A stretch of DNA of 64,000 nucleotides from an uncultured Butyricicoccus sp. GTDB lineage: Bacteria > Bacillota > Clostridia > Oscillospirales > Butyricicoccaceae. Made by a program: the position numbers and the translations under genes. The stretch covers positions 230,182 through 294,181 of the forward strand of contig CAKTAV010000001.1 of the NCBI GenBank assembly GCA_934532985.1. Direction: 5' to 3'. Within the stretch, counting starts at the first letter, position 1. Every line of letters starts with the position of its first letter. Shown in pieces: positions 986-56,088 of this stretch. The notes under the pieces were generated by a model. That model was not told the DNA's origin, made no database searches, and saw nothing but the letters and a program-made list of their open reading frames with translations.

Positions 986-1045
986 TTATCTTCTTTTGCT
1001 GCCAAAAGAAGATAAAGCAGAAGAAAACCAGTCAGGAGCAGCGAC
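986..1045 (+). repeat. Intergenic repeat, A-module copy 1
   Basis: Hairpin ATCTTCTTTTG-CTGC-CAAAAGAAGAT followed by GAAAACCAGTCAGGAGC. The same module occurs at 3912.. and 13268... Confidence 0.85.
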
Positions 1046-1111
1046 AGCCTAGTATTCCCCTACATTTTGTGCTACACTGTACCTATTCTCTCAACGAAAG
1101 GGTGTGCCGCT

Positions 1112-3454
1112 GTGTCGCCGAAACGAACTCCTCTTGTGCGCATTGCGCTGTTATGTGCATTGCTCGGTCTGCTGTCTCTGCTGCCGTGTATCATTCCATA
1201 TCAGGGTCAGCTGGTCTATTACGGCGATTATCTGCGCCAATATGTCCCGTTCCTTCTGGAGACCAAGCGCATGCTGCGCTCCGGCTCGCTCGCGTGGAGC
1301 TGGAACACTTTCCTCGGTGACGGCTTTTATGGCGCGTATTCCTATTACACGGCTGTCAATCCATTTGCGTGGCTGGCGATGGTGTTTCCGGACAGCCTGA
1401 TTCTCTATGGCACACTCGTGTCGCAGCTGGTCAAGTTCGCCGTTTCCGGCGTGTGCTGTGCGCTGTATCTGCGCCGCTTTGTTCAAAATGAGATCGTTCT
1501 TGCCATCGGCGCCGTGCTGTACACCTTTTCTGGCTTCACAATTATCAACAACAACTATTACTTCTTTCTGGACGTCATCGCGGTTTTTCCGCTCCTTTTG
1601 CTCGGCATCGAGTTGGTCGGGGAACGGCGCGATACCCAGTCCGTCCTATTACTGGCATTTGCCGTTTTTGTCAATGCGGAGATCAACTATTATTTCTTCA
1701 TCAGCTCAGCGCTGCTGTGTCTGATCTACTGTATCTTCCGTTTCGAGTGGTATCGGCTTCCCGCCGGTGGTCTGCGGCTTCTACTGCGGCTTAGCGCATC
1801 GATTGTACTCGGCTGTGGTCTGGCAGGCTTTGTCCTGCTTCCGTCCTTTTGGAAGATTCTTCACACGCCCAAGGCAACCGGCTCGCTCGGCGGTATCTAT
1901 CTGCGCCCGTATTCGCCGGAAAATATACTGGAGCGTCTGCGTATCTTCTTCATGCCGATTGAAAACAACATTCAGCACGCGTTCTATCGTTCCGGCTCGT
2001 GGACCTCTACGGCGGTCTATCTCGCCGTGTTCGGCGGCGTGTTTGTCCTGCTGTTTGTCCTGCGCAACCGATGCCACTGGCTGACCAAAACTATGGCGGC
2101 GATGCTGGTATTTCTGCTGATTCCGGTGCTCAACAGCATTTTTACACTGTTTTCCGATTATTCCTACACGCGCTGGCTGTACGGCTTCGTGCTTTTGCTC
2201 GACCTCGCCACCGCCCTTATTCTGGAACAGCGCGGCAGCATTCCACGCGCGCAGCTCAAGCGCAGCTTCCGCATTTCTATGGCGATTACCATCGTTCTGG
2301 CGATTCCGCCCGCCGTCGTCTGTCTGCTGACCTATTGCGGCGTTTCCACCCATTTTTCCGCCCTGTATACCGTGGCGCAGTCCACGATTTATGCCGGACT
2401 CAAGGGTGTGGTCATCGCGCTGGCGCTGACGCTAGTCAACGATGTTCTGCTGTTTCTCGTACTCTTTGGACGAGAAAATCTACGCCGGACGCTCACCTTT
2501 GTCTGCGTCGCATCTGTCATCAATTACGGCGGCTATCTGCTGTTTTATAATTATATCAACGCAGACCGGCTGCAAACTATGCAGACTGAATTAGAACCGC
2601 TCACAGTTTTCAATGCCGATACCTATTCCTATCGGACGGATTCCTCAGCAAAGAATCAAAATCTCAGTCTATTTTGCAACACGCCGTCGGTTTCCGGCTA
2701 TCACAGCCTGCAAAATCGCACCGCCGTCTCGTTCGCCATCGCGGCGGGATACACGGATAGCTCCACGACGATTGTGCTTGACCGTCCGGAACAGGATTCC
2801 GGCGCGCTCGACACGCTGCTGTCCGTCCGGTATTACACCGACACAGGAACCGATCCGGACGCGCAGGTTCCGTCGGGCTTCTCCCTGCTTTCTGATGAAA
2901 ACGGCGTAAAAACTTATGAAAATCAGAATTATCTGCCGTTTGGCTTCTGCTACGACGGCTATTTGACACAGGAGCAGGCACAGGAAAGCAGCTTGTCTAA
3001 GACACAGCTCATGCTGTCCGCCCTCATCGTCGATGACGAGAGCGCAAAGGTCGTCTCTGATCTGCTCCCTCAAGCAACGATCACCGACTTTTCTCTGAAA
3101 AAGGCCGCAGACGCCCGCCGCGCTCAGTGCACAGACTCGTTTGTCGGAACGTCCACTGGCTTCACCGCGTCTATCACATTGGACAAAGCCAACTATGTAT
3201 TCTTCAGCGTTCCGAACGATGACGGCTGGCAGGCCACCGTCAACGGACAGGCGGCAGATATTTTGACCGTCAACTACGGACTGTGCGCCGTCCGCTGTGA
3301 CGCCGGAACCAGTGCCATTGCCTTTACCTATCACACGCCGTGGCTCGTCCCCGGATGTATTCTCACCCTGCTCTCGCTTCTTTTGGTCGCTGGACTGTGG
3401 ATTTGGGATTCCCGCCGACGTGCGGTTCATTCTGCTACGAAAGGATCACTATGA
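1112..3454 (+). CDS. YfhO-family polytopic membrane protein (glycosyl-transfer associated)
   Basis: About 780 aa and multi-TM. N-terminal YGDYLRQYVPFLLETKRMLRSG...WSWNTFLG resembles YfhO. GTG 1112 follows GAAAGGG; the ORF opens at 1067, so the start is uncertain. Confidence 0.7.
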   Translation: MSPKRTPLVRIALLCALLGLLSLLPCIIPYQGQLVYYGDYLRQYVPFLLETKRMLRSGSLAWSWNTFLGDGFYGAYSYYTAVNPFAWLAMVFPDSLILYGTLVSQLVKFAVSGVCCALYLRRFVQNEIVLAIGAVLYTFSGFTIINNNYYFFLDVIAVFPLLLLGIELVGERRDTQSVLLLAFAVFVNAEINYYFFISSALLCLIYCIFRFEWYRLPAGGLRLLLRLSASIVLGCGLAGFVLLPSFWKILHTPKATGSLGGIYLRPYSPENILERLRIFFMPIENNIQHAFYRSGSWTSTAVYLAVFGGVFVLLFVLRNRCHWLTKTMAAMLVFLLIPVLNSIFTLFSDYSYTRWLYGFVLLLDLATALILEQRGSIPRAQLKRSFRISMAITIVLAIPPAVVCLLTYCGVSTHFSALYTVAQSTIYAGLKGVVIALALTLVNDVLLFLVLFGRENLRRTLTFVCVASVINYGGYLLFYNYINADRLQTMQTELEPLTVFNADTYSYRTDSSAKNQNLSLFCNTPSVSGYHSLQNRTAVSFAIAAGYTDSSTTIVLDRPEQDSGALDTLLSVRYYTDTGTDPDAQVPSGFSLLSDENGVKTYENQNYLPFGFCYDGYLTQEQAQESSLSKTQLMLSALIVDDESAKVVSDLLPQATITDFSLKKAADARRAQCTDSFVGTSTGFTASITLDKANYVFFSVPNDDGWQATVNGQAADILTVNYGLCAVRCDAGTSAIAFTYHTPWLVPGCILTLLSLLLVAGLWIWDSRRRAVHSATKGSL

Positions 3455-3867
3455 AAGAATTATTCCACAAGCTGTTTGACACCTCGTTTTTGCGGTTTGT
3501 CATCGTGGGCGTTATCAACACTCTATTTGGCACCGCCATTATGTTCTCCGCCTACAATCTGGTCGGTCTGAACTACTGGGTTTCGTCCGCGCTCAATTAT
3601 ATTCTAGCCAGTATCTTGAGCTATTTTCTCAACAAGCACTTCACGTTCCAAAACAAGGAGCGCGGCGCCGGTGTGGTCGTGCGCTTTATCATTAATATTC
3701 TGGTCTGCTATCTGCTGGCCTATGGCATTGCCAAGCCGCTCATCCGCTTTGTGCTGACCTCCGCCGGACCGACGGTGCAGGATAATGTCTCGATGTTCGT
3801 CGGCATGGTGCTGTTTACGTTCTTCAATTATTTTGGACAGAAGTTTTTCGCGTTCCAGAAGAAGTGA
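3451..3867 (+). CDS. GtrA-family membrane protein
   Basis: 138 aa with 4 TM. FLRFVIVGVINTLFGTAIMF...YFLNKHFTFQ is GtrA-like. ATGA overlap with the yfhO-like stop. Confidence 0.8.
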   Translation: MKELFHKLFDTSFLRFVIVGVINTLFGTAIMFSAYNLVGLNYWVSSALNYILASILSYFLNKHFTFQNKERGAGVVVRFIINILVCYLLAYGIAKPLIRFVLTSAGPTVQDNVSMFVGMVLFTFFNYFGQKFFAFQKK

Positions 3868-3876
3868 ACGTAATAC

Positions 3877-3906
3877 GGGGCTGCTAACGCAGCAGCCCCT
3901 TTCATC
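3877..3906 (+). terminator. Intrinsic terminator after the gtrA-like gene
   Basis: GGGGCTGCT-AACGC-AGCAGCCCC followed by TTTCATC. Confidence 0.7.
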
Positions 3907-3911
3907 TTCTA

Positions 3912-4012
3912 CTCTATTTGCTTTTTTACTTTGTCGTAATTGCTGGAGAGAGAGTAGTCTATTTTCTTTTGCTGCCAAAAGAAAATAGACAAAAGGAAAA
4001 CCAGCAGGAAAC
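3912..4012 (+). repeat. Intergenic repeat, A-module copy 2 (extended)
   Basis: CTCTATTTGCTT...TATTTTCTTTTG-CTGC-CAAAAGAAAATA...GGAAAACCAGCAGGAA; aligns with 13268..13368 and 986..1045. Confidence 0.85.
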
Positions 4013-4093
4013 GGCTGCGTTCCCTGTACCCTTCCGAGCTGCCTGTAGGGAAAACTGGTCTATTATCTTGCCACCGCATGAATGTTACTATAT

Positions 4094-4203
4094 CGCGACG
4101 CAACCCAGCGGAGCGGTTGTGGCGCGAAGGAGCAAGACCACGGAGCGGCTGAGCCGTGTTGACGCTTCAACGCGGCGATGTAGCGGAGTGTGTCGCAGCG
4201 ATG
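4094..4203 (+). repeat. Two-hairpin core element, copy 1
   Basis: H1 CGCGACGCAACC-cagcggagc-GGTTGTGGCGCG. Linker AAGGAGCAAG. H2 GCCGTGTTGA-cgc-TCAACGCGGC. Tail GATGTAGCGGAGTGTGTCGCAGCGATGC. Confidence 0.85.
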
Positions 4204-4280
4204 CAGAGGGTATTTACATTGCGCATAGTGGGTAGTTAGCCATCTATCCTCAGAGTAAATCTTGTTTCTTTCCCTCAACA

Positions 4281-4455
4281 ATAACAGCCTGCGATAGCGG
4301 AAAAACTTCGAATCCAGTTTTTCCGCGTGTAGAGCGTTAAGGAAGGTCTTTAGGAAACGTAGTTTCCTAAATCAGCTTCTTTCCCCCCACTTCTTGTCTG
4401 ATGACAAGAAATGGGGCCGCCGCGGAGCGGGATAAACAAGTCTGCTTCGGCGAAC
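4281..4455 (+). repeat. Intergenic repeat, D-module copy 1 (three consecutive hairpins)
   Basis: About 90% identical by hand alignment to 7299..7470. Hairpins: GCGGAAAAACT/AGTTTTTCCGC, TTTAGGAAAC/GTTTCCTAAA, CCCCAC-TTCTTGTC/GACAAGAA-TGGGG. Confidence 0.9.
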
Positions 4456-4576
4456 AAAATAATAGTACAATTTCACCGTGTTCGCTTGTTCTCTCAACAA
4501 AAAATGCCATTTCCCTTTTTCCCATTTTTATGGTATCCTGAATAGAGAAATTCTCCAGAAATGAGGGCGATGCTGC

Positions 4577-5236
4577 ATGAAAACGATTTTATGCGTCGGT
4601 GATTCCAACACACACGGCTTTGATCCGTCCGACAACGGACGCTACCCGTATGACGTGCGCTGGCCGGGCGTGCTCCAGCAGCTGCTGGGACGCGACAAAT
4701 ATTATGTCATAGAGGAAGGCCTGAACTCCCGCACGACAGTGCTGTCCGATCCGGTCTATGACGACAACAAGAGCGCACAGGACGTGCTGCCGGTACTCAT
4801 CAAAACGCACATGCCGGTGGATCTGTGCATCATCATGCTGGGCACCAATGACCTCAAGCAACGGTTTTCCATGCAGCCCTGCGATATCGGACGCGGACTG
4901 ACCCTGCTTTCCCGTACGGCGCAGCGCGTTTCGGCAGACAAAAACCCGTCCGGTATACCGTGCTCGGTTCTGCTGGTCGCGCCGCCGCCGATCACGCCTC
5001 ATATGCTGACCGGACGCTGTGCCGCAGAGTTCGGTAGCCGTGCCCTCTCGCTGTCCACCCAGCTGTCCAGCTGGGTGCATGTCGCCGCCGAAAACACCGG
5101 CGCTGCTTTCTTGGACGCATCCGTTCTGGTGCAGCCCAGCGAGATCGACGGCCTGCATCTGACGCCGGAGGGACACCGTGCACTCGCACAGGCGATTGCG
5201 AAAGAGATCGACTTTATCCTCGGCGAGCCGTTTTAA
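4577..5236 (+). CDS. SGNH/GDSL-family hydrolase
   Basis: Block I CVGDSNTHG, GTNDLK, and C-terminal DGLHLTPEGH (catalytic Asp/His region). Confidence 0.8.
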   Translation: MKTILCVGDSNTHGFDPSDNGRYPYDVRWPGVLQQLLGRDKYYVIEEGLNSRTTVLSDPVYDDNKSAQDVLPVLIKTHMPVDLCIIMLGTNDLKQRFSMQPCDIGRGLTLLSRTAQRVSADKNPSGIPCSVLLVAPPPITPHMLTGRCAAEFGSRALSLSTQLSSWVHVAAENTGAAFLDASVLVQPSEIDGLHLTPEGHRALAQAIAKEIDFILGEPF

Positions 5237-5240
5237 CGGC

Positions 5241-5516
5241 TCATTCTGCAAACCAAGACTGTTCCATTTTCTGCTGATATTCCGACAGGACGGCCTGCTC
5301 CAGCTTTTCGCGCATATCCGAGCCGACCGGATGCACAATGTCGCGGTAGCGTCCATCCGGCATCCGGCGCGACGGCATTGCCAGAAACAGCCGCTCCGGT
5401 CCGTCGATTACCTTGATATCGTGCACAGCAAACGTGCGGTCAAACGTGACGGAGACCAGTGCGCGCAGCCGTCCCTCTTGATTTACCTGTCGAAATTGAA
5501 TATCGGTGATTTCCAT
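5241..5516 (-). CDS. spoVG: Septation protein SpoVG
   Basis: 91 aa: MEITDIQFRQVNQEGRLRALVSVTFD..FAVHDIKVI...LAMPSRR.PDG.YRDI.HP. Confidence 0.9.
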   Translation of the reverse strand: MEITDIQFRQVNQEGRLRALVSVTFDRTFAVHDIKVIDGPERLFLAMPSRRMPDGRYRDIVHPVGSDMREKLEQAVLSEYQQKMEQSWFAE

Positions 5517-5666
5517 TTTGGTTCTGTCTCCTTCATTCGGTTGAATTTTTCTTTTCCAGACTATTTATATTCTGGTCAAATTGTCATATAATATACATTA
5601 GCTTTTGTCGCCGCGGCGGCAAGAGCACACACCTATTCACTTCATTTCTTTTTGGAGGCAATTTGC

Positions 5667-7040: not shown

Positions 7041-7137
7041 TCGCGTCAACATATCAAAATAATAAGAATCACACAGCGCCGCTTTCTCTTCGGGGAGGGC
7101 GGCGTTCGCTTCGCCTGTCGCTGCGGCGCACTTTGCG

Positions 7138-7273
7138 GTCGCATCGGCGAACTCCACTATCTCCCTGTGCCAAAGTCTTGGCACAGCTCGACCGTTTCAT
7201 TGCCTCGCTCCTCAAATTCCAAACGCTTCGCTGGTTTGGAATTTGAAAACGGCGAGAGTTACTCTGAGAACAG
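7138..7273 (-). repeat. Two-hairpin core element, copy 2 (inverted orientation)
   Basis: On the minus strand: CTCAGAGTAA..., H1 CAAATTCCAAAC-cagcgaagc-GTTTGGAATTTG, linker AGGAGCGAG, H2 CTGTGCCAA-gac-TTGGCACAG, tail ...GTGGAGTTCGCCGATGCGAC. Confidence 0.85.
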
Positions 7274-7298
7274 CTCTTTCACTATTATATCTCAGCCA

Positions 7299-7470
7299 TA
7301 ATAGCCTCCGATAGCGGAAAAACTTCGAATCCAGTTTTTCCGCGTGTAGAGTGCTAAGGAAGGTCTTTAGGAAACGTCGTTTCCTGAATCAGTTTCTTTC
7401 CCCCACTTTTTGTCTGATGACAAGAAATGGGGCCTCCGCGGAGCGGGACGAACAAATCTGCTTCGGTGAA
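7299..7470 (+). repeat. Intergenic repeat, D-module copy 2
   Basis: Aligns with 4281..4455. The substitutions inside stems give G-U pairs. Confidence 0.9.
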
Positions 7471-7599
7471 TCGGCTATCTATCATTTTTTTAATTCGGCT
7501 GCGTCGCAGCGACAGCGATAGATGACAAAACACTTTGCTTGTGTTATAATAATCAATTATAATACATACCCCCTGAATTGATTTATGGAGGACTATCAT

Positions 7600-8985: not shown

Positions 8986-8996
8986 GGAGACAACAT

Positions 8997-10106
8997 ATGT
9001 TACTGAAAAATGGTATGATCTTTCAGCCGGACGGCACCTTTGCCCCCGGCGACATGGAATTTGGCGAAACCATCACGCAGGTGGGATGGATTGACAGACA
9101 GGCGGACATCAACGCCACGGATAAGTATGTCATTCCGGGTCTGCTGGACATCCACACCCACGGCGCGTTGCAGGAGGACGCGAGCGACGGCAGCATCGAG
9201 GGACTGGAAAAGATGTCCCGCTACTATGCCAAGAACGGCGTGACCTCGTGGTGCCCGACGACGATGACGCTCAAGGAAGAGACGCTGATTCCGGCGATGC
9301 ACGCCATCCGCGACTTCCGGACCAAGGGCGCGCGCTGCCTCGGCATTCATCTGGAGGGTCCGTTCCTGTGCTACGACAAGCGCGGCGCACAGGCGGCAGA
9401 AAATCTGCACGCACCGGATGCGTCCATGTTCCACCGTCTGAACGAGGCATCCGGCAACCAGATTCGTCTGGTTACGGTTGCGTGTGAGGAGCCGGGCGCA
9501 ATGGAGTTCATCGACGAGATCTCGCAAATCTGCACGGTATCGCTCGGTCACACGATTGCGGACTATGACACCGCAATGGAGGCATATCGCCGCGGTGCAT
9601 CTCATGCGACCCACCTGTTCAACGGCATGAATCCGCTGCACCACCGCAAGCCGGGCGTGATCGGCGCGGCATATGACGCCGGTGCAACCGTCGAGCTGAT
9701 CTGCGACGGACTGCATATTCACCCGTCGGTCATCCGCATGATGTTCCAGCTGTATGGCGACAAGCTGACGCTCATCAGCGATTCGCTGCGCTGCGCCGGT
9801 ATGCCGGACGGTCAGTATGAACTGGGCGGTCAGCCGATTATTATGAAGAACGGGAAAGCAACGCTGATGGATGAAACCACACTGGCCGGCTCGTCGATCA
9901 GCGTGCTCAAGGCGGTACAGAATGTCGTTTCATTCGGCATTCCGCTGGAAAAAGCGGTTGCGGCGGCGACAATTGTTCCGGCGCGTGCGATTCGCGTGGA
10001 CGACAAGGTCGGTTCGCTCGAGCCGGGCAAGCTGGCAGACTTCTTGATTCTGGACAACGATCTGAATCTGGAAGCGGTCTATATCGGCGGAAAAAAATAC
10101 GAATAA
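8997..10106 (+). CDS. nagA: N-acetylglucosamine-6-phosphate deacetylase
   Basis: IPGLLDIHTHG, HLEGPF, GHT.A, ATHLFNGM motifs. AAGGAG RBS. Confidence 0.9.
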   Translation: MLLKNGMIFQPDGTFAPGDMEFGETITQVGWIDRQADINATDKYVIPGLLDIHTHGALQEDASDGSIEGLEKMSRYYAKNGVTSWCPTTMTLKEETLIPAMHAIRDFRTKGARCLGIHLEGPFLCYDKRGAQAAENLHAPDASMFHRLNEASGNQIRLVTVACEEPGAMEFIDEISQICTVSLGHTIADYDTAMEAYRRGASHATHLFNGMNPLHHRKPGVIGAAYDAGATVELICDGLHIHPSVIRMMFQLYGDKLTLISDSLRCAGMPDGQYELGGQPIIMKNGKATLMDETTLAGSSISVLKAVQNVVSFGIPLEKAVAAATIVPARAIRVDDKVGSLEPGKLADFLILDNDLNLEAVYIGGKKYE

Positions 10107-10126
10107 ATTTAATGATTGCAAGCAGA

Positions 10127-10163: not shown

Positions 10164-10203
10164 CCGGATATCGTGACTACGAATGCGGTAAGGAGGTAAT
10201 CGC

Positions 10204-10977: not shown

Positions 10978-11075
10978 TATAAACAGTGTCTTTTTGCAGA
11001 AATGCGATTGTATTTTGGGGGATTTGAGTGTAGGCGGAGCGATTATACGCTTACAGTTTGATCTGTGCTTGACGT

Positions 11076-11138
11076 CAGCGGACAACCCCTCTGCCACGGC
11101 AAGCCGTGGCATCTCCCCTTGCACAGGGGCGATATTGG
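11076..11138 (+). repeat. Intergenic repeat, F-module copy 1
   Basis: CAGCGGACAACCCCT-CTGCCACGGC-aa-GCCGTGGCAT-CTCCCCTTGCACAGGGGCGATATTGG; the second copy is at 19072... Confidence 0.85.
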
Positions 11139-11156
11139 AGAGAACGATTTACCGGT

Positions 11157-11294
11157 CTGTTCTTAGAGCAAATCTCTCGTTTTTCAAATTCCAAACCAGT
11201 GAAACGTTTGAAATTTGAGGAGCAAGGCAATGGAACGGTCTCGCCGTGTTGATGCTTCAACGCGGCGAGTGAGTGGAATTCGCCGAAGCGACGC
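11157..11294 (+). repeat. Two-hairpin core element, copy 3
   Basis: H1 CAAATTCCAAAC-cagtgaaac-GTTTGAAATTTG. Linker AGGAGCAAG. H2 CGCCGTGTTGA-tgc-TCAACGCGGCG. Tail GTGGAATTCGCCGAAGCGAC. Confidence 0.85.
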
Positions 11295-11377
11295 GATAGC
11301 GATAGTTGCGAAACCCTCCGCTATTTGGTATGATAAGAGGGGTTCGTTACACACAATGACCTTTGGGAGGAATAACA

Positions 11378-13150
11378 ATGAGAGTATATCATTTTGGCTC
11401 CGGCGGGGGAAATCCGTTTGAGGAGATTTTTCGCGGAATGGGCGGACAGCAGCAAAGCAGCGATCCGAACCAGAGCCAGAAGCATAATCCGCCGCCGCAT
11501 CGTGCGCGTCCGAAAACAAGTAAAAAGGGAAAAATCGCCCGTGTGATTGTGTTCTTGATTGCGCTGGCTGTGGGATATTATCTCATTCTGCCGCCGATGA
11601 ATATTCAGTCGACGGAGAGCTGGAGCTTTGTGGCGATATATCTGGCGCTGGCATGGTTTCTGGCGTCTACCGTGTCGAATGGAGAGACCAATAACGTTTA
11701 TGGAACGGATGGAAAGCCGATTCAGCCGCCAAAGAAGAAATTCGGCCTGCGCCGAATCATTGGCATGATATTTGGTGTGGGTATTGTTGTATATGTGCTG
11801 TGCACGGTGCTGTCCAGCCCACTGTTTCAGGCGAAGCACTATGCATCCATCATTCAGGAATCCATGACGACAAAAGAAATTGAGGAGTATACCCCGACGA
11901 TTGACAATGTGCCGCTGCTGGACCGCGACAGTGCCGAGCGTTTGGCACAGCGTGCGCTGGGCAATTTGGTCGATGAAGTGTCGCAGTTTGTGCTGGCAGA
12001 CAGCAACCAGATCACGGTAAAGGGTGCGCCAGTGCGCGTGCAGCCGCTGGGATATGATGGTGCGATTAAGTGGTTCCTCAACCGTGATGTCGGTATTCCT
12101 GCGTATATTACGGTGGATATGAAGAGCCAGAACACCAAAATTGTGCGTCTGGAACAAGGCATTCACTATTCGCCGAGTGCGTATCTGAATGACCGTCTGG
12201 AACGGCATCTGCGGTTTTCCTATCCGACGGCGATGTTCGGCGACTATAAGTTTGAATTGGATGAGGATGGCAATCCGTATTGGGTTGTTCCGGTGCTGCG
12301 CCATCGCATTATGCTGCTGGCGGGTACGGATGTCAAGGGTGTTGTCACCTGTAATCCGGTAACCGGAGAGACAGCGTATTATCCACTGGGACAGATTCCG
12401 GATTGGATTGACAATGTGTATAGCGCGGATTTGATTATCCAGCAGTATAACTGGTATGGACGCTATCATAATGGCTTTATCAATTCGCTGATCGGCCAGA
12501 AGGGCTGTGTCAAGACGACAGAAGGATATAACTATATCCCGAAGGGCAATGATGTATACTGCTACACGGGCGTCACCAGTGTAGTCAGTGATGAAAGCAA
12601 CATTGGCTTTATCTTCTCGGATTTGCGCACGCGCGAGACGGAATATTATGAAATTGCCGGTGCTGAGGAGTTCTCTGCGATGAGCAGTGCCGAAGGCTTG
12701 GTACAAAACCTGAAATATCAGGCGACGTTCCCGCTCCTGCTGAATATTCACGATCAGCCGACGTATACCGTTGCACTCAAGGATGACGCCGGATTGGTTA
12801 AAATGTACGGCATGGTCAATATGTCGCAGTATCAGGACGTTGTGACCGGCAAGACCATCAAGGACTGTCTTGCCAACTATGAGCAGCTACTGGTGGACGA
12901 CGGCATTATCAAGCCGGAGGAGCAGGAGGCCGCAGCAGCACAGGAAATCGAGGGCAAGATCATCGATCTTCGCTCGGCAGTGCGCAACGGCACGACATAC
13001 TATTACCTGCGGCTGGATAACGGCGAGAAATACTATTCTCTGAGCGCGTCGGACGACGAGACGGCGGTATTGCTCAATGAGGGCGACACGGTGCAGCTGG
13101 TCGTCAAGGACGGTAAGGGAGAAATTTTGGCAGCAACGCTGAAGGAGTAA
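11378..13150 (+). CDS. Membrane-anchored protein of unknown function (3 TM plus an extracytoplasmic domain of about 430 aa)
   Basis: GGGAGG lies 8 nt before ATG 11378. Gly/Pro/Gln-rich N-terminus followed by hydrophobic segments. I do not recognise a family. Confidence 0.6.
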   Translation: MRVYHFGSGGGNPFEEIFRGMGGQQQSSDPNQSQKHNPPPHRARPKTSKKGKIARVIVFLIALAVGYYLILPPMNIQSTESWSFVAIYLALAWFLASTVSNGETNNVYGTDGKPIQPPKKKFGLRRIIGMIFGVGIVVYVLCTVLSSPLFQAKHYASIIQESMTTKEIEEYTPTIDNVPLLDRDSAERLAQRALGNLVDEVSQFVLADSNQITVKGAPVRVQPLGYDGAIKWFLNRDVGIPAYITVDMKSQNTKIVRLEQGIHYSPSAYLNDRLERHLRFSYPTAMFGDYKFELDEDGNPYWVVPVLRHRIMLLAGTDVKGVVTCNPVTGETAYYPLGQIPDWIDNVYSADLIIQQYNWYGRYHNGFINSLIGQKGCVKTTEGYNYIPKGNDVYCYTGVTSVVSDESNIGFIFSDLRTRETEYYEIAGAEEFSAMSSAEGLVQNLKYQATFPLLLNIHDQPTYTVALKDDAGLVKMYGMVNMSQYQDVVTGKTIKDCLANYEQLLVDDGIIKPEEQEAAAAQEIEGKIIDLRSAVRNGTTYYYLRLDNGEKYYSLSASDDETAVLLNEGDTVQLVVKDGKGEILAATLKE

Positions 13151-13221
13151 AAAAAATGGCATCAAAAAATGGCTGCTGTACAAGCAATGCTTGTACAGCA
13201 GCCGTTTTTGATGCCATTTTT
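13151..13221. terminator. Long bidirectional terminator hairpin between convergent genes
   Basis: Nested perfect inverted repeat AAAAATGGCATCAAAAA..GGCTGCTGTACAAGC-aat-GCTTGTACAGCAGCC..TTTTTGATGCCATTTTT. Confidence 0.85.
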
Positions 13222-13267
13222 CAATGAGGTATTCCAGTGATTTGGGATAGACAGTATTATTTTTCAG

Positions 13268-13402
13268 CTCTATTTGCTTGTTCGATTTACTGTAGTTGTT
13301 GGCAAGAAAAGTCCATTTTCTTTTGCTGCCAAAAGCAAGTGTACAAAAAGAAAACCAGTCAGGAGCCACGGAACGGAATGAACAAGTCTGCTTCGGCGAA
13401 CC
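13268..13402 (+). repeat. Intergenic repeat, A-module copy 3 plus the tail of the D-module
   Basis: CTCTATTTGCTTG...ATTTTCTTTTGCTGCCAAAAGCAAG...GAAAACCAGTCAGGAGC, then AACAAGTCTGCTTCGGCGAAC, which matches the end of 4281..4455. Confidence 0.8.
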
Positions 13403-18568: not shown

Positions 18569-18785
18569 GGATGTTATTAGCCGTAATTATTTAGTATTAC
18601 CGACAGTGGACCAATTGCTGCAAAAAAGTCTCAAAAAATCAAGCGAAAAATTAACGGCAAAATGGTTTCGAAATACAGCATTTAACAAGGAAATATGCAA
18701 GATTTCATAATAAAAGATTGTGTGTATCTTCGGAACATAAAAATAGACAAACCGAGGAAAATCAGTTTGCCAATTCTCTGTCACG

Positions 18786-18925
18786 GTCGCTGCGACACAC
18801 TGCGCTACATCGCCACGCCGAGGCATCGGCATGGCTCAACCGCTCCGTGGTCTTGCTCCTTCGCGTCACAACCGCTACGCTGGGTTGCGTCGCGATATAT
18901 GCTAAGATTTCCTCTGAGAATAGAC
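18786..18925 (-). repeat. Two-hairpin core element, copy 4
   Basis: Minus strand: H1 CGCGACGCAACC-cagcgtagc-GGTTGTGACGCG, linker AAGGAGCAAG, H2 GCCATGCCGA-tgc-TCGGCGTGGC, tail GATGTAGCGCAGTGTGTCGCAGCGAC. Confidence 0.85.
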
Positions 18926-18984
18926 GGGTAAAATTTTCGGTTTTACTCACTATGTGCACGTTAAATACCTTCTGCAAATCTTTT

Positions 18985-19040
18985 GAGTGAGCGAAGCGAA
19001 AGTGGGATGTCAGTTGTTTCCAACAACTGACTGAGGGATT
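18985..19040 (+). repeat. Intergenic repeat, G-module tail
   Basis: GAGCGAAGCGAAAGTGGGATG, hairpin TCAGTTGTT-tccaa-CAACTGA, then CTGAGGGATT; parallels 22745.. and 56035... Confidence 0.75.
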
Positions 19041-19071
19041 GTACGCCTACGTCAAGATTTATGCTAACTTT

Positions 19072-19135
19072 CAGCGGACAACCCCTCTGTCACGGCTGCG
19101 CCGTGACATCTCCCCTTGCACAAGGGCAATATTAG
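19072..19135 (+). repeat. Intergenic repeat, F-module copy 2
   Basis: CAGCGGACAACCCCT-CTGTCACGGC-tgc-GCCGTGACAT-CTCCCCTTGCACAAGGGCAATATTAG. The stem change relative to copy 1 is compensated. Confidence 0.85.
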
Positions 19136-19244
19136 TGCGTGCCATTTACTCTGAAAATAGACAGTTATTAAACTTCCAACAGCTACATCAAAGCCACCAA
19201 ACAAATAGAGCGAAAAAAAACAATAGACAGTACCCCATCCCCGG

Positions 19245-22685: not shown

Positions 22686-22802
22686 CCTCTCAGAGTAAAT
22701 CTTACTGCTTTAGCTCCCTTATGCAAATGGGCCGCGCCATGCCAGTGGCATGCGAGCGAAGCGAAAGCGGGATGAATTTACACAGCAAATTCTGTGAGGA
22801 TC
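22686..22802 (+). repeat. Intergenic repeat, CTCAGAGTAAATC motif plus G-module
   Basis: CCTCTCAGAGTAAATCTTACTGC...CCATGCCAGTGGCATGCGAGCGAAGCGAAAGCGGGATG, a hairpin, then AGGATC. Confidence 0.8.
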
Positions 22803-22833
22803 TGAACTAACCCATATATCCTATTCTCCCACC

Positions 22834-27502: not shown

Positions 27503-27699
27503 TGTTTCCGTTCCTCCGATAATCTATCTCAGCAGGAAGCGCTGCTTCCCCTGTCAACGCATTGTACTAAATATTATTGTATCACGTTTTTCCAAAAAAG
27601 AAATGAATATCCCATGACAGTTTGGCAACAGTATGGTAACACTTTACCGGTGTTTTTGTTCTGTTTTCTCACTTTTTACAATGAAATAGTCTAATTTTC

Positions 27700-27735
27700 G
27701 ACAAAAACAGGCTGTCGGAATATTCCGACAGCCTG
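27700..27735 (-). terminator. Intrinsic terminator after the iolE-like gene
   Basis: CAGGCTGTCGG-aatatt-CCGACAGCCTG followed by TTTTTG on the minus strand. Confidence 0.85.
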
Positions 27736-27748
27736 TGGCAGTCATATA

Positions 27749-28651
27749 TTACTTTGCCATTTCGGATACGAGGTAATCGTATGCCATCTTAGCGTACTTG
27801 AACGGATTTGCCTTTGCCGGGTCCTGCTCGGCCTCGACCATAATCCAGCCCTCATAGCCGATCTCGTCCAGCTTCTTCAGTATCGACGGGAAGTCAACAC
27901 AGCCCTCCGGATCGCCCGGTACGGTGAACGCGCCGTTGCGAACCGCCTTCAGGAACGGCCAGCGACCGGCAATTGCCTCGTCACGAGCCGGCTTGCGCAT
28001 GTTCTTCAGATGCACATGACCAATGCGATCCGGGAACTCGTTCAGAATTGCGATCGGATCCGTCTCGGTAAAGGTCCAATGACCCGTGTCATAGCACAGA
28101 TAAACCAGACCCGGCTCCGTGTTCTGGAGCATGCGGCGAGTCTCATCCAGCGTCTGTACGCAAGTACCCATATGATGATGGAAGCAAGCCTTCAGACCGT
28201 AGGACTTTGCAATCTCGCCCAGCTTATTCAGACCCTCGCACATTCTCTTGAACTCATCGTCTGTGAAAACAGCCTTGTCGTCAAAAATGGACTTGGTCTC
28301 ATCGCCCTGAATGGAGTAGGACTGCTCCGAAATGTTGACGGCAGATGCACCGACAGCAGACAGATAATCCATTTCCTTCATGAACTCGTCGCGGGTCTCC
28401 TCATACGGCTTGGTGCCCAGGAAGGAAGAGAACCACTTGGATGCGATGGTCATACCACGCAGATCCAGCGCTTCCTTCAGCTCCTTGACGTCGGTCGGAT
28501 ACTTGTGTCCAACCTCACATCCGGTGAAGCCAGCCAGACGCATTTCCGAAATACACTGCTGGAACGTATTCTCGTCGCCCAGATCCCACATGTCGTCGTT
28601 GGTCCAGCCAATCGGGCAGATACCCAGCTTGACATCCTTATTTGTGAACAT
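27749..28651 (-). CDS. Xylose-isomerase-like TIM-barrel protein, myo-inosose-2 dehydratase (IolE)-like
   Basis: KLGICPIGWTNDDMWDLG...AGFTGCEVGHKYP resembles the IolE N-terminus. No other iol genes are nearby. Confidence 0.7.
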   Translation of the reverse strand: MFTNKDVKLGICPIGWTNDDMWDLGDENTFQQCISEMRLAGFTGCEVGHKYPTDVKELKEALDLRGMTIASKWFSSFLGTKPYEETRDEFMKEMDYLSAVGASAVNISEQSYSIQGDETKSIFDDKAVFTDDEFKRMCEGLNKLGEIAKSYGLKACFHHHMGTCVQTLDETRRMLQNTEPGLVYLCYDTGHWTFTETDPIAILNEFPDRIGHVHLKNMRKPARDEAIAGRWPFLKAVRNGAFTVPGDPEGCVDFPSILKKLDEIGYEGWIMVEAEQDPAKANPFKYAKMAYDYLVSEMAK

Positions 28652-44402: not shown

Positions 44403-44405
44403 TTC

Positions 44406-46362: not shown

Positions 46363-46366
46363 ATTC

Positions 46367-47248: not shown

Positions 47249-47311
47249 ACTTCTTCCTCCCGTTTCTCGTGATATATACTTATTACACCCAGAGAAAAGG
47301 AAATACAAGAC

Positions 47312-47432: not shown

Positions 47433-47482
47433 TATTCTATCTATTCATTCTGTTTATGCAGATGACAGCTCGTATTTCCTGC

Positions 47483-47856: not shown

Positions 47857-47859
47857 CCC

Positions 47860-48773: not shown

Positions 48774-48877
48774 GCCTTCTCTCCTCCCTCGCCCTTCATT
48801 TAGATCTTTGTCTAAATATAGAATAGCAGAGAGAGTCTGCCCTGTCAACGATTATTTAGATATTTATCTAAATATTA

Positions 48878-49906: not shown

Positions 49907-49941
49907 TCTGTTTCCTCCCTTTTTCACGGGCTGCAAAGATG

Positions 49942-49981
49942 ACAAAAGGAAGCGGTTCCGGTGCATTCCGGTCTCGCTTCC
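49942..49981 (-). terminator. Terminator hairpin after comFC
   Basis: GGAAGCG...CGCTTCC stem followed by TTTTG on the minus strand. Confidence 0.6.
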
Positions 49982-50010
49982 CTTCAGTATATGCCATTTG
50001 TAGAAAAAAC

Positions 50011-52928: not shown

Positions 52929-53232
52929 TGTATTCCGCCTCTGTCTGATGATTTGTCGTGTTATTGTATTATTATAACAAAGATTTTGAGGTGGGACAAT
53001 GGAAAACATCTGTGAGGAGATAAGTCACGATTTCGCTGCCTCTAGCTCCCTCATCATCCTCCCCTATTTCGCCCTTGAAAAATTGTTTGTTTTCCCCATT
53101 GACTATACCAAACGCAAGTAGTATTCTAACTTTAGGAATACAAGGTGGCTTTTTCAAAGAGATGCGCTTTGCCGCTCTCCTGTTGAATCAGCTTCCGCCT
53201 ATGTATTCGCTCATGTAAGGAGGGGGATTTCT

Positions 53233-53469
53233 ATGAGCAGCAAAAAAGCACGATGGATTGGCGGCATTCTGGCAGGTTTGCTCGCTGTATCTGCAACCGC
53301 ATTTGCCATTGCCGGCAGCCGCACCGCGGTGACCACGGCGCATATTCCGGAGGGCACCAGCCAGTATACCTCGGCGGACGGCAAGGTGGTATTCGAGCGC
53401 GAGGACGTACCGGAGCAGGTTGCACAGCAGGACGCGACATATCAGTCGGAGCTGGCGGATGCGCAGTAA
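53233..53469 (+). CDS. Small membrane-anchored or secreted protein (78 aa)
   Basis: AAGGAGGGGG RBS. N-terminal hydrophobic segment WIGGILAGLLAVSATAFAIAG. Confidence 0.6.
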   Translation: MSSKKARWIGGILAGLLAVSATAFAIAGSRTAVTTAHIPEGTSQYTSADGKVVFEREDVPEQVAQQDATYQSELADAQ

Positions 53470-53489
53470 TATCCTCACTTATCTGATAG

Positions 53490-53696
53490 CTTTCCTTAAA
53501 GAATAACTATCTGTCTAAACATCAACACAAGAGCCTACGGTTCTGCTATACTCGCACATATTATGGTCGTGACAAACGTGGAGATTCTGGAAGAGTATGG
53601 GGTTATAAAGTAGTCACTGCCCGCGGCTCTTATTGCGACTATGACGTTGCAGATGCGTTTATTCACTATGTAAAGTACGGAACCACAAGTAAGTAA
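53490..53696 (+). pseudogene. Start-less ORF fragment (3' remnant of a lost gene)
   Basis: Open for 68 codons stop-to-stop (...CYTRTYYGRDKRGDSGRVWGYKVVTARGSYCDYDVADAFIHYVKYGTTSK) with no in-frame ATG, GTG or TTG. Low GC. Followed by its own terminator. Confidence 0.45.
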
Positions 53697-53706
53697 TTTT
53701 TTATCT

Positions 53707-53746
53707 AAGCTCATCTATGAATACAATCATAGATGAGCTTATTTCT
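53707..53746 (+). terminator. Intrinsic terminator after the ORF fragment
   Basis: Perfect 14-bp stem AAGCTCATCTATGA/TCATAGATGAGCTT followed by ATTTCT. Confidence 0.7.
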
Positions 53747-53762
53747 GCAAAGGAGTAGTCTT

Positions 53763-54917
53763 ATGTCAAACTCTCATTTTCAAATAGTACGATCAACTAT
53801 TGCACTCTTTCTGACCATTGCCCTTTCCTGCATTTCCATTTTTCTGTTTTCCTCTGCCATGATATACAAGCACTTCGACGCACGGAGTCTGGAAAAGGAC
53901 AACAACACGGTCTATCTCTCGATTCAGCACGAATCCGATCCGACCAAGCTCCCCAACACGCCGGAAACGCTGCATGACTTTCTTACCCTATACAACGCTC
54001 TGTCGCAATCTGATTCCTATACGTATTATGAGTTATACGCTCAGCCTATCGTGCCTACCTCCGGTTCATTTTTCGATTTTTACACCGAAGAATGGAGCGA
54101 CACCCCGCAGGAAGTGTATGCCGTACAGCTCAGCGCCAATGTGCAAAAGGACTTTGCGCTTTCTGTCTCCCGCGGGCGGCTGCTCAAAGCGTCGGACTTT
54201 ACGCTGCGCAGCAAGCAGTCCATCCCCGTTCTTCTCGGCGCTTCCTACGCTTCTCGGTATTCCCTCGGCGATACATGTCGTGCCGACTACCTGTATCACA
54301 CCTATCCGTTTGTTGTCGTCGGATTTTTGGACAAGGACAGTCAGATTGCCACCTCCAACAACACCATGCCGCTGGATCAAGCCGTCGTCATGCCGAGCTT
54401 TCTCTATGACGGCACGCCCAAAACGAAGTCCGCTTACACATCGCTGAAAATCCACTACGCCAACAAGGTCAGCGGCAGCCTCCGCATGAAACCGGAGCAA
54501 TTGGATACCGTCTCTGCGCAGGTCACATCGCTTCTGCAAGACACGCCGGTCGGCACGTTCTCATGGTCCAGCAGTATCTGGGGCGATCAGCCCATTCTGT
54601 GGGGCATGAACCTTCGCACGTTGTCCGTCATCTCTGCCCTCATCGGCCTTCTGGCAATCCTCGCCTCACTGATTCTGCTGGCACGCATCGCGCGAACTGC
54701 TTCGCGAAAGCTACTCTCCTTTATCGCGGTTTTGGTGATTCATATCATAGCATTCGCCGCGTTCATCGGCGTGTATCAGGCTGTTTTGGCAGACCGGCTG
54801 ACAATTGACCTGTTTTCTCTCATACCATATCCACTGCTGTTCTGCGGTGTGGACTGTCTGATTTTTCTCCTTCTGCTTTGTAGGAAGAAAACACACGGTT
54901 CACGCAATTCATCCTGA
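53763..54917 (+). CDS. Membrane protein with FtsX/MacB-like topology (TM, extracytoplasmic domain of about 250 aa, then 3 TM); no partner ATPase
   Basis: AAGGAG lies 8 nt before ATG 53763. The hydrophobicity pattern supports the topology. GC is lower than the flanks. Confidence 0.6.
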   Translation: MSNSHFQIVRSTIALFLTIALSCISIFLFSSAMIYKHFDARSLEKDNNTVYLSIQHESDPTKLPNTPETLHDFLTLYNALSQSDSYTYYELYAQPIVPTSGSFFDFYTEEWSDTPQEVYAVQLSANVQKDFALSVSRGRLLKASDFTLRSKQSIPVLLGASYASRYSLGDTCRADYLYHTYPFVVVGFLDKDSQIATSNNTMPLDQAVVMPSFLYDGTPKTKSAYTSLKIHYANKVSGSLRMKPEQLDTVSAQVTSLLQDTPVGTFSWSSSIWGDQPILWGMNLRTLSVISALIGLLAILASLILLARIARTASRKLLSFIAVLVIHIIAFAAFIGVYQAVLADRLTIDLFSLIPYPLLFCGVDCLIFLLLLCRKKTHGSRNSS

Positions 54918-54939
54918 GCAGAAAACTTCCGCCGCAACA

Positions 54940-54968
54940 TTGACAATTTTCCGGTTCCATCATACAAT
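54940..54968 (+). promoter_or_regulatory. Consensus sigma-A promoter of the glycine riboswitch unit
   Basis: TTGACA-17 nt-TACAAT. Confidence 0.75.
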
Positions 54969-54974
54969 AGCTAT

Positions 54975-55190
54975 GCGGAACGAAGTATCCGGGAGAGCAC
55001 CGCAGCGCAAACCAGGGGCTGCGCGTCGCCGAAGGGGTTATACTCTCAGGCAAAAGGATCGGATATGGACTGCACTCTGGAAAGCCGGCAGCGACCGGCG
55101 CCGACGAAGCAATCGGCCTGCACGTCCGAGTATCTTTCAGGCAAACAGACAGAGCACCACGCAAAAAGCGGAGGGGCTCTGTTTTTTTGT
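54975..55190 (+). promoter_or_regulatory. Tandem glycine riboswitch with terminator (ON-switch architecture)
   Basis: Aptamer 1: GGGAGAG...CGCCGAAGGGG...CTCAGGCAAAAGGATCGG. Aptamer 2: CTCTGGAAAG...CGCCGACGAAGCAA...TTTCAGGCAAACAGAC. Then CAGAGC...GCTCTG plus T7. Confidence 0.85.
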
Positions 55191-55207
55191 TTTCAGGAGG
55201 AACATTT

Positions 55208-55834
55208 ATGGACGTATTCAGCGCAATTTTTGAAATGATCGGGGTACTGGCGTTTGCGGTTTCCGGCGCTCTGGTCGGCATTCGCCACAAGATGGATTTA
55301 TTCGGCGTGATCTCTCTGGGCGTGGTCACCGCTCTGGGCGGCGGCGTCATTCGCGATGTCGTACTCGGCATCGTCCCGCCCGCCGCATTCCAAAATCCGA
55401 CACAGGTGCTCGCCGCTATCGCCGTCTCGGTTTTGGTTTTTCTGCCCTTTTCCCGCCGCCGTCTCGCGCACAGCACCGCGCAGTTTGACACGCTGCTGCT
55501 CGTCGCGGACTCCATCGGTCTGGGCATTTTCACCGTGCACGGCCTACGCGCCGCGGTCAACGCGGGCTTCTCGGACAATCTGTTTCTGCTCATCTTCGTC
55601 GCTCTGATTACCGGTGTCGGCGGCGGTGTCCTGCGCGATCTGCTCGCGGGAGAGCGCCCATATATTTTTGTCAAGCACATCTACGCCTGCGCCTCCATCG
55701 TCGGGGCTCTGCTATGCGCATTCGCCGCGCCGCGGTGTGGTATCCAGCTGGCCATGGCGTTCGGCTGCGCCGCGGTAATCCTGCTACGCCTTAGCTCGGC
55801 GCGCTACCGCTGGAATCTGCCGCGGGCGGACTAG
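55208..55834 (+). CDS. UPF0126/TRIC-family membrane protein (putative glycine transporter family)
   Basis: Two repeats of the G.LGGG..RD motif (TALGGGVIRDV and TGVGGGVLRDL). AGGAGG RBS before ATG 55208. Confidence 0.85.
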   Translation: MDVFSAIFEMIGVLAFAVSGALVGIRHKMDLFGVISLGVVTALGGGVIRDVVLGIVPPAAFQNPTQVLAAIAVSVLVFLPFSRRRLAHSTAQFDTLLLVADSIGLGIFTVHGLRAAVNAGFSDNLFLLIFVALITGVGGGVLRDLLAGERPYIFVKHIYACASIVGALLCAFAAPRCGIQLAMAFGCAAVILLRLSSARYRWNLPRAD

Positions 55835-55970
55835 TCGCATCGGCGAATTCCGCTACCTCCCTGTGCCAAAGTCTTGCCACAGCTCGACCGCTCCAGTGCC
55901 TCGCTCCTCAAATTCCAAACGTTTCACTGGTTTGGAATTTGAAAAACGGTAAGATTTACTCTGAGAACAG
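55835..55970 (-). repeat. Two-hairpin core element, copy 5 (starts at the base after the upstream stop codon)
   Basis: About 90% identical to 7138..7273. H1 CAAATTCCAAAC-cagtgaaac-GTTTGGAATTTG. H2 CTGTGGCAA-gac-TTGGCACAG. Confidence 0.85.
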
Positions 55971-55974
55971 ACAG

Positions 55975-56088
55975 ATAAATGGCACGCACCAAAGGCGTCC
56001 CTTGATGCAACAGGCTGCACCATGCCAGTGGCATGTGAGCGCAGCAAAAGCAGGACTGTCAATTGCGTAGCAATTGACTAAAGGGATT
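55975..56088 (+). repeat. Intergenic repeat, G-module
   Basis: CCATGCCAGTGGCATGTGAGCGCAGCAAAAGCAGGACTG, hairpin TCAATTGC-gta-GCAATTGA, then CTAAAGGGATT. Confidence 0.8.

Follow-up and report, generated by a model that had tools for sequence, protein, structure and literature searches.

Eight intergenic regions of a gut bacterial contig carry a probable mosaic family of non-coding hairpin repeats

Introduction

Mosaic repeats of the repetitive extragenic palindrome/bacterial interspersed mosaic element (REP/BIME), Neisseria intergenic mosaic element (NIME) and BOX types are well studied in Proteobacteria and streptococci. In the NIMEs of Neisseria, RS repeats are separated by dRS3 junction repeats, and the BOX elements of pneumococcus are built as boxA-boxB(n)-boxC in fixed order and orientation. 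The enterobacterial repetitive intergenic consensus (ERIC) sequences, also called intergenic repeat units (IRU), are imperfect palindromes of about 127 nt. A literature search found no such family for Clostridia, Butyricicoccaceae or the Oscillospirales of the gut, which are abundant and largely uncultured, nor a REP system with its REP-associated tyrosine transposase (RAYT) for Firmicutes. The present work concerns a 64,000-nt stretch of contig CAKTAV010000001.1 (the window), in which eight intergenic gaps are built from a common set of hairpin modules. The evidence presented below makes it on balance probable that these gaps carry one lineage-restricted mosaic family of non-coding hairpin repeats of the BIME/NIME/BOX kind, non-autonomous and proliferating or recombining.

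The GC content of the window is about 55%. It is identical to part of the 378-kb ENA metagenome contig ERZ27287048:k141_802383 (the source contig), of which 78 kb were covered, the window together with 8.9 kb upstream and 4.9 kb downstream. The MurC protein of the window shared 64-68% identity with Butyricicoccus and Agathobaculum proteins and 71-84% with those of metagenome-assembled genomes (MAGs) of Clostridia/Eubacteriales, and by these identities the host is placed as an uncultured human-gut member of Oscillospirales near Butyricicoccaceae. Hadza gut metagenomes were among the samples carrying the window sequence, and the species is also present in MERR22 and VALL22 samples. The second module-bearing genome, CAVBHI01 ('bacterium isolate SRR8978323_cleanbin_000002'), is assigned by its best named protein hits to the same broad clade, because its TruA is 69-72% identical to that of Agathobaculum. 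The compared loci and contigs bear L-numbers, and strains were compared on contigs with exactly identical flanking proteins. The module labels A, core, D, F and G were kept from the original prediction, and sp and x were added here.

Results

Extent and layout of the module regions

Self-BLAST of the window linked all eight gaps with matches of 37-181 nt (64-91% identity, E-values from 2e-4 to 4e-55), and repeat finding recovered the same families. The central 21-nt motif of the core occurred five times compared with 0.01 expected from shuffles. The 15-nt motif of the junction element M, TTCTCAGAGTAAATC (up to 3 mismatches), was found seven times compared with 1.04 expected, and all seven lay within the module regions. 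These matches and counts bear out the shared module set that had been predicted. The locations given originally were retained with slightly wider bounds (Table 1), which total about 2.2 kb; the former total of about 1.4 kb was too low, the earlier intervals themselves summing to about 2.0 kb.

Besides the core, the modules A, sp, x, M, D, F and G are also hairpins, as folding confirmed, and they are combined in varying order and orientation across the eight regions and between strains, in agreement with the mosaic layout first proposed. The regions are non-coding in the gene calls of the source contig, as was claimed, except for an 81-aa open reading frame (ORF) at 18587-18832 (-), without a Pfam hit, which overlaps 49 nt of one core. 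Upstream of the modules lie gene terminators (884-908, 3877-3899, 13171-13203), and downstream of them the promoters of the next genes (7522-7550, 11306-11334); with respect to the neighbouring genes the modules have either orientation. Such terminator-to-promoter spacers are where extra DNA is tolerated.

Structure and covariation of the 112-nt core

The core is 112 nt long and consists of a 13-bp hairpin followed by a 77-nt imperfect hairpin. The loop of the first hairpin is formed by CA and a G-Y-G-N-A-R-C mini-hairpin, the linker between the hairpins is conserved as (A)GGAGCRAG, and in the 77-nt hairpin an outer helix pairs GRCMAY with RTKYGYC around a terminal helix of 9-10 bp. Two subtypes were present among the aligned copies and a third came with locus L106; about one third of the positions differ, and one structure is kept.

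A covariance model of the core (R1) was built, and 18 distinct copies were aligned to it for the pair statistics. R1 detected five copies in the window at 112-124 bits and nothing else, so the original count of five was exact. True copies scored 69-124 bits overall, compared with at most 24 bits in about 470 kb of unrelated control loci that had been picked for containing the central 21-mer. In the 18-copy alignment, which was fitted to R1, 96.5% of the pair cells held standard pairs, and 23 of the 35 pairs were changed on both sides. The covariation score was 0.526 compared with 0.221 after shuffling, and none of the 500 shuffles reached 0.526. Sliding the partners by 1-3 columns lowered the pairing to 28-40%, with no more than 9 pairs changed on both sides. 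A hand-made alignment, anchored on lengths only, resulted in the same pairs; 488 cells were Watson-Crick, 24 were G·T and 2 were A·C. All five window cores were 4-12 kcal/mol more stable on the same (folding) strand. The core structure is strand-specific, as the excess of G·T over A·C cells and this stability bias to one strand show.

Most copies have GCGNAGC as the loop of the first hairpin. In subtype III the loop is GCGACAGC (GCGNNAGC), and two copies have GTGAAAC, with a closing pair that covaries. An extraordinarily stable DNA mini-hairpin has two consensus forms, GCGNAGC and GCGNNAGC, and the RNA counterparts of both melt far lower (PMC13037366). Within the modules, GCGNAGC reached 3.6 times its density in the remainder of the window. 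The mini-hairpin loops lean toward a folded DNA strand and do not decide between DNA and RNA.

It is possible, though rather unlikely, that the core, alone or together with M and x, represents a structured non-coding RNA (ncRNA) present in multiple copies. It would be either a small RNA gene or a cis-acting transcript element that, for example, stabilises a 3'-UTR (untranslated region), regulates the convergent gene in antisense or acts as a decoy for a protein; promoters, terminators or accessory hairpins would then be the role of the other modules. The strong covariation over three subtypes, the conserved unpaired motifs (GGAGCRAG, GGAGCGG and TAGYGGA), the 24 G·U against 2 A·C on one strand and the folding energies, which favour that strand in five of five copies, all speak for such an RNA. 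A lead in the same direction is a weak promoter-like TTGCAG-N17-(C/T)ATAGT in x, pointing into M-core, which was read from the alignment of L109, L131, L059 and window region 6 and lies below the threshold of the promoter scan. In five copies the 3' end of the core faces the 3' end of a convergent gene, which is an antisense-RNA geometry, and twice the stop codon is overlapped: at L131 and at window position 55832, the last three bases of the core are the TAG stop of the convergent upstream gene. However, the consensus scan gave no promoter upstream of the cores and no intrinsic terminator was found after them, several cores have no x upstream, their orientation relative to the flanking genes is mixed, the loops match mini-hairpins favoured by DNA, and Rfam gave no match.

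Two further candidates were rejected. A Shine-Dalgarno sequence with ATG in the core (AGGAGCAAGGCAATG) was considered as the start of a small ORF, and the ATG reads ACG or CTG in other copies. The hairpin GAGCCGTG... was considered as domain V of a group II intron; it is without the bulge or GNRA loop, and its helix sequence varies freely.

Composite unit and module ends

Modules A, sp, x, M and core also occur as a composite of about 445 nt, A-sp-x-M-core. The composites of L109 (window species) and L131 (second species), at unrelated loci, were 81% identical over 443 nt. At three loci the ends were fixed as CTCTATTTGCTT... and ...GCAGCGAC. The 5' flanks read TTTA, TTCA, TCTA and TCAG. In L059 a hairpin-plus-F segment of about 165 nt was inserted within M, flanked by an imperfect direct repeat. 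As read directly in the composite alignment, the hairpins of A and sp differ between loci by compensated pairs. Module D, with its four hairpins, was about 90% conserved, the second species included, and was too invariant for covariation to be read. Module F folded better on the strand opposite to the labelled one.

The ends of the composite are not terminal inverted repeats (TIRs), and the repeat search of the window found no inverted repeats bounding module blocks. No consistent target-site duplication (TSD) was observed, the flanks being TA/TA at L131, CA/TA at L109 and TA/- at window region 2. Direct repeats were present only at internal junctions (GTCTATT and GTCTATCCTC/GGTATTCTCA).

Such ends, together with the strand-specific fold, are also those expected of a gene-less derivative of IS200/IS605 resembling a palindrome-associated transposable element (PATE), with A as the left-end hairpin and the core as the right end, comparable to the scaffold of a TnpB omega-RNA, moved as single-stranded DNA (ssDNA) by a Y1 TnpA encoded elsewhere. 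The fixed ends at three loci would suit this explanation, as would the 3'-terminal place of the structured unit, which is the one expected for an omega-RNA scaffold. The TTTA, TTCA or TCTA with which the 5' flanks end at three sites could represent a short target. The explanation is nevertheless considered very improbable. The hairpins of A and core are unrelated in sequence, whereas the left and right hairpins of IS608-type elements are alike. Some cores are not accompanied by A, and with respect to F and D cores point either way. Among the five window cores, too few to be decisive, orientation was not biased with GC skew, no TnpA or TnpB gene was found in any sampled locus, and Rfam, which includes IS605-orfB and HEARO models, gave no match. 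The 18 nt 3' of each core, considered as a possible guide, had no match other than themselves in the 78 kb, a result uninformative rather than negative.

Junction motifs

Two motifs recur between modules, M (GTCTRTTCTCAGAGTAAATC) and GCGAC. M has inverted ATTTAC/GTAAAT ends. As the most recurrent motif, present only in module regions, the quasi-palindromic M (ATTTAC-N15-GTAAAT) could be an operator, and the modules arrays of binding sites for a nucleoid-associated or regulatory DNA-binding protein with incidental hairpins. Hardly any weight is given to this possibility. It leaves the 23 compensated pairs and the strand asymmetry of the core unexplained, the flanking genes are functionally unrelated, and a comparison of strains and relatives shows the sites exchanged or missing. 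M was also rejected as a sigma-70 promoter: it has a 15-nt spacer and poor hexamers, faces either way with respect to the modules next to it and was missed by the promoter scan.

Variation between strains

In strain L095 (about 97% identity), 101 nt (3957-4057) bounded by the 7-nt direct repeat GTCTATT were absent. Gene conversion is suggested by the orthologous core of the same strain, in which three fully compensated pair differences match other copies. In place of its first hairpin, the core at 11183 has in L097 a collapsed subtype II core fused to a subtype I 3' arm, forming a chimera. Directly past the stop of the glycine-transporter gene, the subtype I core of the window is replaced in L109, L112 and L114 by one of subtype II, with position and orientation unchanged; M, x, sp (-) and A (-) follow this core in place of G. 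Breaks in synteny between strains coincided with module regions, L095 and L099 diverging past TauE and L115 past region 8.

Three observations on the edges of module regions are added. L102 is without 11307-11497, a 191-bp deletion at the edge of region 4. In L115, region 8 runs into a tRNA-gene-like sequence followed by an Rrf2 gene. At about 56250-56700 (+) of the window only a 146-aa FtsX fragment is left, where L109 (5964-8627) and L112 have a response regulator, a histidine kinase, an ABC ATPase and an 852-aa FtsX permease; this strain deletion directly adjoins region 8.

Occurrence in other genomes

CAVBHI01 was found in a scan of a genome collection with a 21-nt degenerate core motif. 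The matches listed were mostly chance, and the true modules in at least four CAVBHI01 contigs were the only real ones among them. These modules were 75-95% identical to those of the window and lay beside the housekeeping genes EcfT-TruA, NifU/IscS, ABC-F and an EAL protein. Strains of the second species differ in the EcfT-TruA gap, which measured 892 nt in one compared with 545 nt in others, with different module strings; the string in the 545-nt gap is A-sp-x-M-core (about 445 nt). Adjacent inverted pairs of cores were present in L026 (5523-5634 -, 5680-5792 +) and L056 (457-569 -, 615-726 +).

Among the relatives, the one with 84% identical MurC had no module in 21 kb around murC, the one with 78% identical MurC had one core of subtype III (L106), and the one with 71% identical MurC had no core around murC. 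The phylogenetic distribution is patchy. The absence around murC in the closest sampled relative and the exchange between strains also differ from what would be expected of a housekeeping RNA.

In the 78 kb there are eight module regions, with five cores in the window. Seven of the eight regions lie within 0.9-22.8 kb of the window, and the flanks added, about 14 kb, gave no copy, as would be seen after a local segmental duplication or with a chance similarity confined to this stretch of the chromosome. That explanation is refuted, its probability being practically nil: as the original prediction held, the family is no local duplication, since the same modules occur at unrelated loci of CAVBHI01 and one core in a third genome (L106), and the counts are far above the shuffled expectation. 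The 'hundreds per genome' extrapolated earlier, although conceivable, were unsupported as stated, given this distribution and the single module region in a 20.8-kb locus of the second species.

The genes rplI and gdpP were located about 7-9 kb upstream of the window (L120 1-2190). As on the B. subtilis map, both are near oriC in many Firmicutes, so the cluster of module regions may be close to the origin of replication.

Searches against known families

No Rfam 15 family was found in the modules, even at E<=10, the best score being 22.9 bits compared with a threshold of 75 bits (chance matches of miRNA-type hairpins), and the novelty stated earlier held in this respect. At the gathering thresholds only the thiamine pyrophosphate (TPP) and glycine riboswitches passed in the window, both outside the modules. 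Plasmid and phage collections gave no blastn match to 3900-4460. Exact-pattern scans of IMG/VR for core, D and x and searches of JGI metagenomes with specific core patterns both resulted in 0 matches. A set of 5.8 billion proteins, searched with the translated open frame of the core, gave no candidate. No transposase, integrase or recombinase domain was detected in the window genes scanned or having precomputed Pfam hits, and the absence of TIRs, of a consistent TSD and of a transposase had been described correctly. In a survey of HUH enzymes, Clostridia appear mainly under the IS200-type TnpA (PMC6006769).

Feature coordinates and neighbouring sequences

Table 1. Coordinates of the modules in the eight regions of the window
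Region	Bounds and module order	Feature	Coordinates	Strand	Remarks
1	932-1039; A	Module A: T-rich leader, AT-rich 14-bp hairpin, then CAAAAGGAAAACCAG	932-1039	+	Directly past terminator 884-908; 73% identity to 13260-13366, 71% to 3915-4009
2	3907-4455; A, sp, core II (+), x fragment, M, D	Module A (3907-4009) and sp (4010-4088, two short hairpins)	3907-4088	+	sp 92% identical to L059 62-127; 3957-4057 absent in strain L095
2		Core, subtype II	4092-4204	+	cmsearch 112 bits
2		Module x, 3' fragment (GCAGAGGGTATTTAC...), then junction motif M (4242-4264)	4205-4264	+	Sequence alignment
2		Module D, four hairpins, ~181 nt	4274-4455	+	91% identity to 7291-7470; ends ~120 nt before start codon of gene at 4577
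3	7136-7471; core I (-), M (-), D (+)	Core, subtype I	7136-7247	-	cmsearch 123.7 bits; 3' end faces murC terminator
3		Junction motif M	7252-7275	-	Motif match 7256-7270
3		Module D	7291-7471	+	Upstream of promoter 7522-7550
4	11037-11294; F, M, core I (+)	Module F: hairpins GCCACGGC..GCCGTGGC and CCCCTT..AGGGG	11037-11152	+	76% identity to 19033-19149
4		Junction motif M	11153-11182	+	Motif match 11160-11174
4		Core, subtype I	11183-11294	+	cmsearch 118.3 bits; directly upstream of promoter 11306-11334
5	13260-13401; A, D 3' end	Module A (13260-13366) and D 3'-end fragment (13365-13401)	13260-13401	+	Between bidirectional terminator 13171-13203 and MATE gene stop
6	18784-19167; core II (-), M (-), x (-), F (+), M (-)	Core, subtype II	18784-18896	-	cmsearch 112.9 bits
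6		M (18903-18925), then x with GAGCGAAGCGAAAGTGGGA motif and terminal hairpin	18903-19032	-	With core gives the composite's x-M-core order
6		Module F (19033-19149); M motif on minus strand at end (19143-19167)	19033-19167	+	Self-BLAST, repeat families, motif scan
7	22687-22825; M, G, small hairpin	M (22687-22711), G (22715-22772, GCGAAGC mini-hairpin), small hairpin, 25-nt motif (22801-22825)	22687-22825	+	Repeat families, motif scan
8	55832-56132; core I (-), M (-), G (+), hairpin, M-like (-)	Core, subtype I	55832-55943	-	cmsearch 118.9 bits; final three bases form the stop codon (TAG) of the glycine-transporter gene (55208-55834)
8		M (-) 55950-55972; G (+) 55998-56055; hairpin 56056-56093; M-like (-) 56109-56132	55944-56132	mixed	Self-BLAST, motif scan

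The 25-nt motif of region 7 (ATCTGAACTAACCCATATATCCTATT) recurs inverted at 61578-61602 with 92% identity, near the TPP riboswitch region, and this place may be a ninth, minimal module site. A degenerate form of the motif adjoins module A in the second species (L131, about 9900-9935). The sequence 13152-13221 is a long near-perfect palindrome with a 15-bp stem, which serves two convergent genes as a bidirectional terminator; the alignment with L056 from the second genome spans both the palindrome and module A at 68% identity, and judged from this alignment the palindrome may belong to the repeat family. Another palindrome, 27692-27751, of 60 nt (30-nt arms, 77% complementary, no spacer), precedes an AP_endonuc_2 (xylose isomerase-like TIM barrel) gene and is unrelated to the module family.

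The glycine riboswitch aptamer (52 bits) is at 55067-55162 (+), directly upstream of the PF03458 'Gly_transporter' gene 55208-55834 (+). The TPP riboswitch (72.7 bits) is at 61300-61407 (-), upstream of a thiW-thiM-thiE cluster with thiC nearby. A large ORF, 61724-63928 (-), runs past the window end (790 aa in L125); its 21-nt-periodic repeats give a 7-residue protein repeat, and it has no Pfam hit.

Discussion

The repeats are probably selfish or recombining DNA rather than genes. An element of the BIME/NIME kind fits the data better than a conserved regulatory RNA, because the family is structured and strand-specific, is arranged as a mosaic with a junction motif, shares a composite between species, is swapped between strains, has a patchy range and is placed in spacers in either orientation. 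The covarying strand-specific structure of the core in three subtypes, the composite of about 445 nt, the strain polymorphism and the role of M as a junction element are additions to the original prediction.

Non-autonomous elements of this kind would multiply and reshuffle by copy-and-paste and/or by gene conversion between dispersed copies. The reshuffling would pass through a folded single strand, most likely of ssDNA, because the loops are the GCGNAGC/GCGNNAGC DNA mini-hairpins. By analogy with REP/RAYT, the folded strand might be recognised by an enzyme encoded elsewhere in the genome, and this mobilising agent is purely inferred because no such gene was present in the sampled loci. The junction motifs M and GCGAC would act as preferred joints, and effects on neighbouring transcripts, such as 3'-end hairpins and barriers to read-through, would be by-products.

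Several observations weigh against a mobile BIME/NIME-kind element. The copies are clumped, and the flanks of the window (8.9 kb upstream, 4.9 kb downstream) contain no module. None of the compared strains and loci yielded an empty site, so insertion was not seen directly, and the indels that were seen could all be deletions or gene conversions. No gene for a transposase, HUH/Y1 enzyme, TnpB, reverse transcriptase or integrase was found in 78 kb of the source contig or in the other loci with modules, which span about 130 kb. The orientation of the cores (3 minus, 2 plus) showed no bias relative to the mostly monotonic GC skew, unlike that of ssDNA elements of the IS200/IS605 type, which with five copies is a weak point. 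Finally, the strict covariation and the conserved unpaired motifs would fit a functional RNA equally well.

A bolder proposal, to which we assign a distinctly low probability, is that the core is a scaffold nucleic acid, RNA or folded ssDNA, for a dedicated host or mobile-element protein, its conserved junctions serving as a binding platform and its varying helices (I, II, III) as a code of specificity or compatibility. If true, the family would represent a new class of exchangeable structured non-coding cassette in gut Clostridia, for example one similar to guide RNA or omega-RNA, or the substrate of a new cassette-swapping system based on an HUH enzyme or recombinase. If the core is an RNA, a new class of multi-copy structured RNA would be at hand.

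For the mosaic repeat family favoured here, the 112-nt covarying core in three subtypes, the 445-nt composite and the junction motif provide a searchable model. The family marks sites of strain-level rearrangement, may explain assembly breaks and changes of synteny in the MAGs of the clade and may serve as a strain-typing marker. It may also lead to a single-strand-specific mobilising enzyme in Firmicutes.

Comparison with known systems

Miniature inverted-repeat transposable elements differ from the present family in their TIRs and fixed-length TSD, both of which were looked for here and found absent. PATEs of IS200/IS605 and TnpB omega-RNAs resemble it in that TIRs and TSDs are absent, one end folds strand-specifically and the composite has at one terminus a structured unit of about 110 nt. 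Differences are the dissimilar end hairpins, the absence of strand bias among the few (five) window cores and of tnpA/tnpB in the sampled loci, and the cores detached from the A end. With ERIC the family shares a long imperfect hairpin, comparable to the 77-nt hairpin of the core, and the intergenic location in either orientation. However, ERIC is a single palindrome without a mosaic, whereas here a two-hairpin core is accompanied by at least six other modules.

Like BOX, the family is modular, non-coding and intergenic, with stable predicted secondary structure and no transposase of its own. Unlike in BOX, all eight regions differ from one another in the order and orientation of their modules, as do strains, and there is no sequence similarity and the host lineage is another. 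The NIMEs are similar in their modules of 50-150 nt in varying combinations, their intergenic location, their ties to rearrangement and strain variation, and the short junction motif that separates the blocks, M being in a role like that of dRS3. However, dRS3 is a perfect inverted repeat of 20 bp, which M is not, the modules here are covarying hairpins, and we know of no link of these modules to phage integration sites, unlike in NIMEs.

The REP/BIME elements of E. coli, mobilised by RAYT/TnpA-REP, are likewise extragenic, non-coding and hairpin-forming mosaics of few unit types with short linker motifs. They number tens to hundreds of copies per genome; here five cores and eight regions, clumped, were counted in 78 kb. 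They share with the present family at least two subtypes (as the Y and Z palindromic units), a site composition varying between strains, the absence of TIRs and TSDs and a presumed single-strand recognition. Inverted doublets like those of REPINs (REP doublets forming hairpins) were seen in L026 and L056, all five window cores being single. The differences from REP/BIME are the 37-nt and 77-nt hairpins in a core of 112 nt compared with palindromes of 20-40 nt (about 35 nt), and the tetranucleotide, which is not a GTAG 5' of the hairpin and reads GTAG, ATAG, TGAG or GGAG among the copies, inside an internal loop. In addition, no RAYT gene, which in REP systems is a single-copy Y1 HUH gene flanked by the repeats (a REPtron), was found in 78 kb of the source contig or the other loci, there is no sequence similarity, and the host is of the Clostridia type, for which the literature search found no REP/RAYT system. 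The resemblance to BIME and BOX that was proposed originally holds as an analogy only: the defining GTAG palindrome and the fixed A-B-C order are absent here, and what is shared is an intergenic, non-coding mosaic of hairpin modules.

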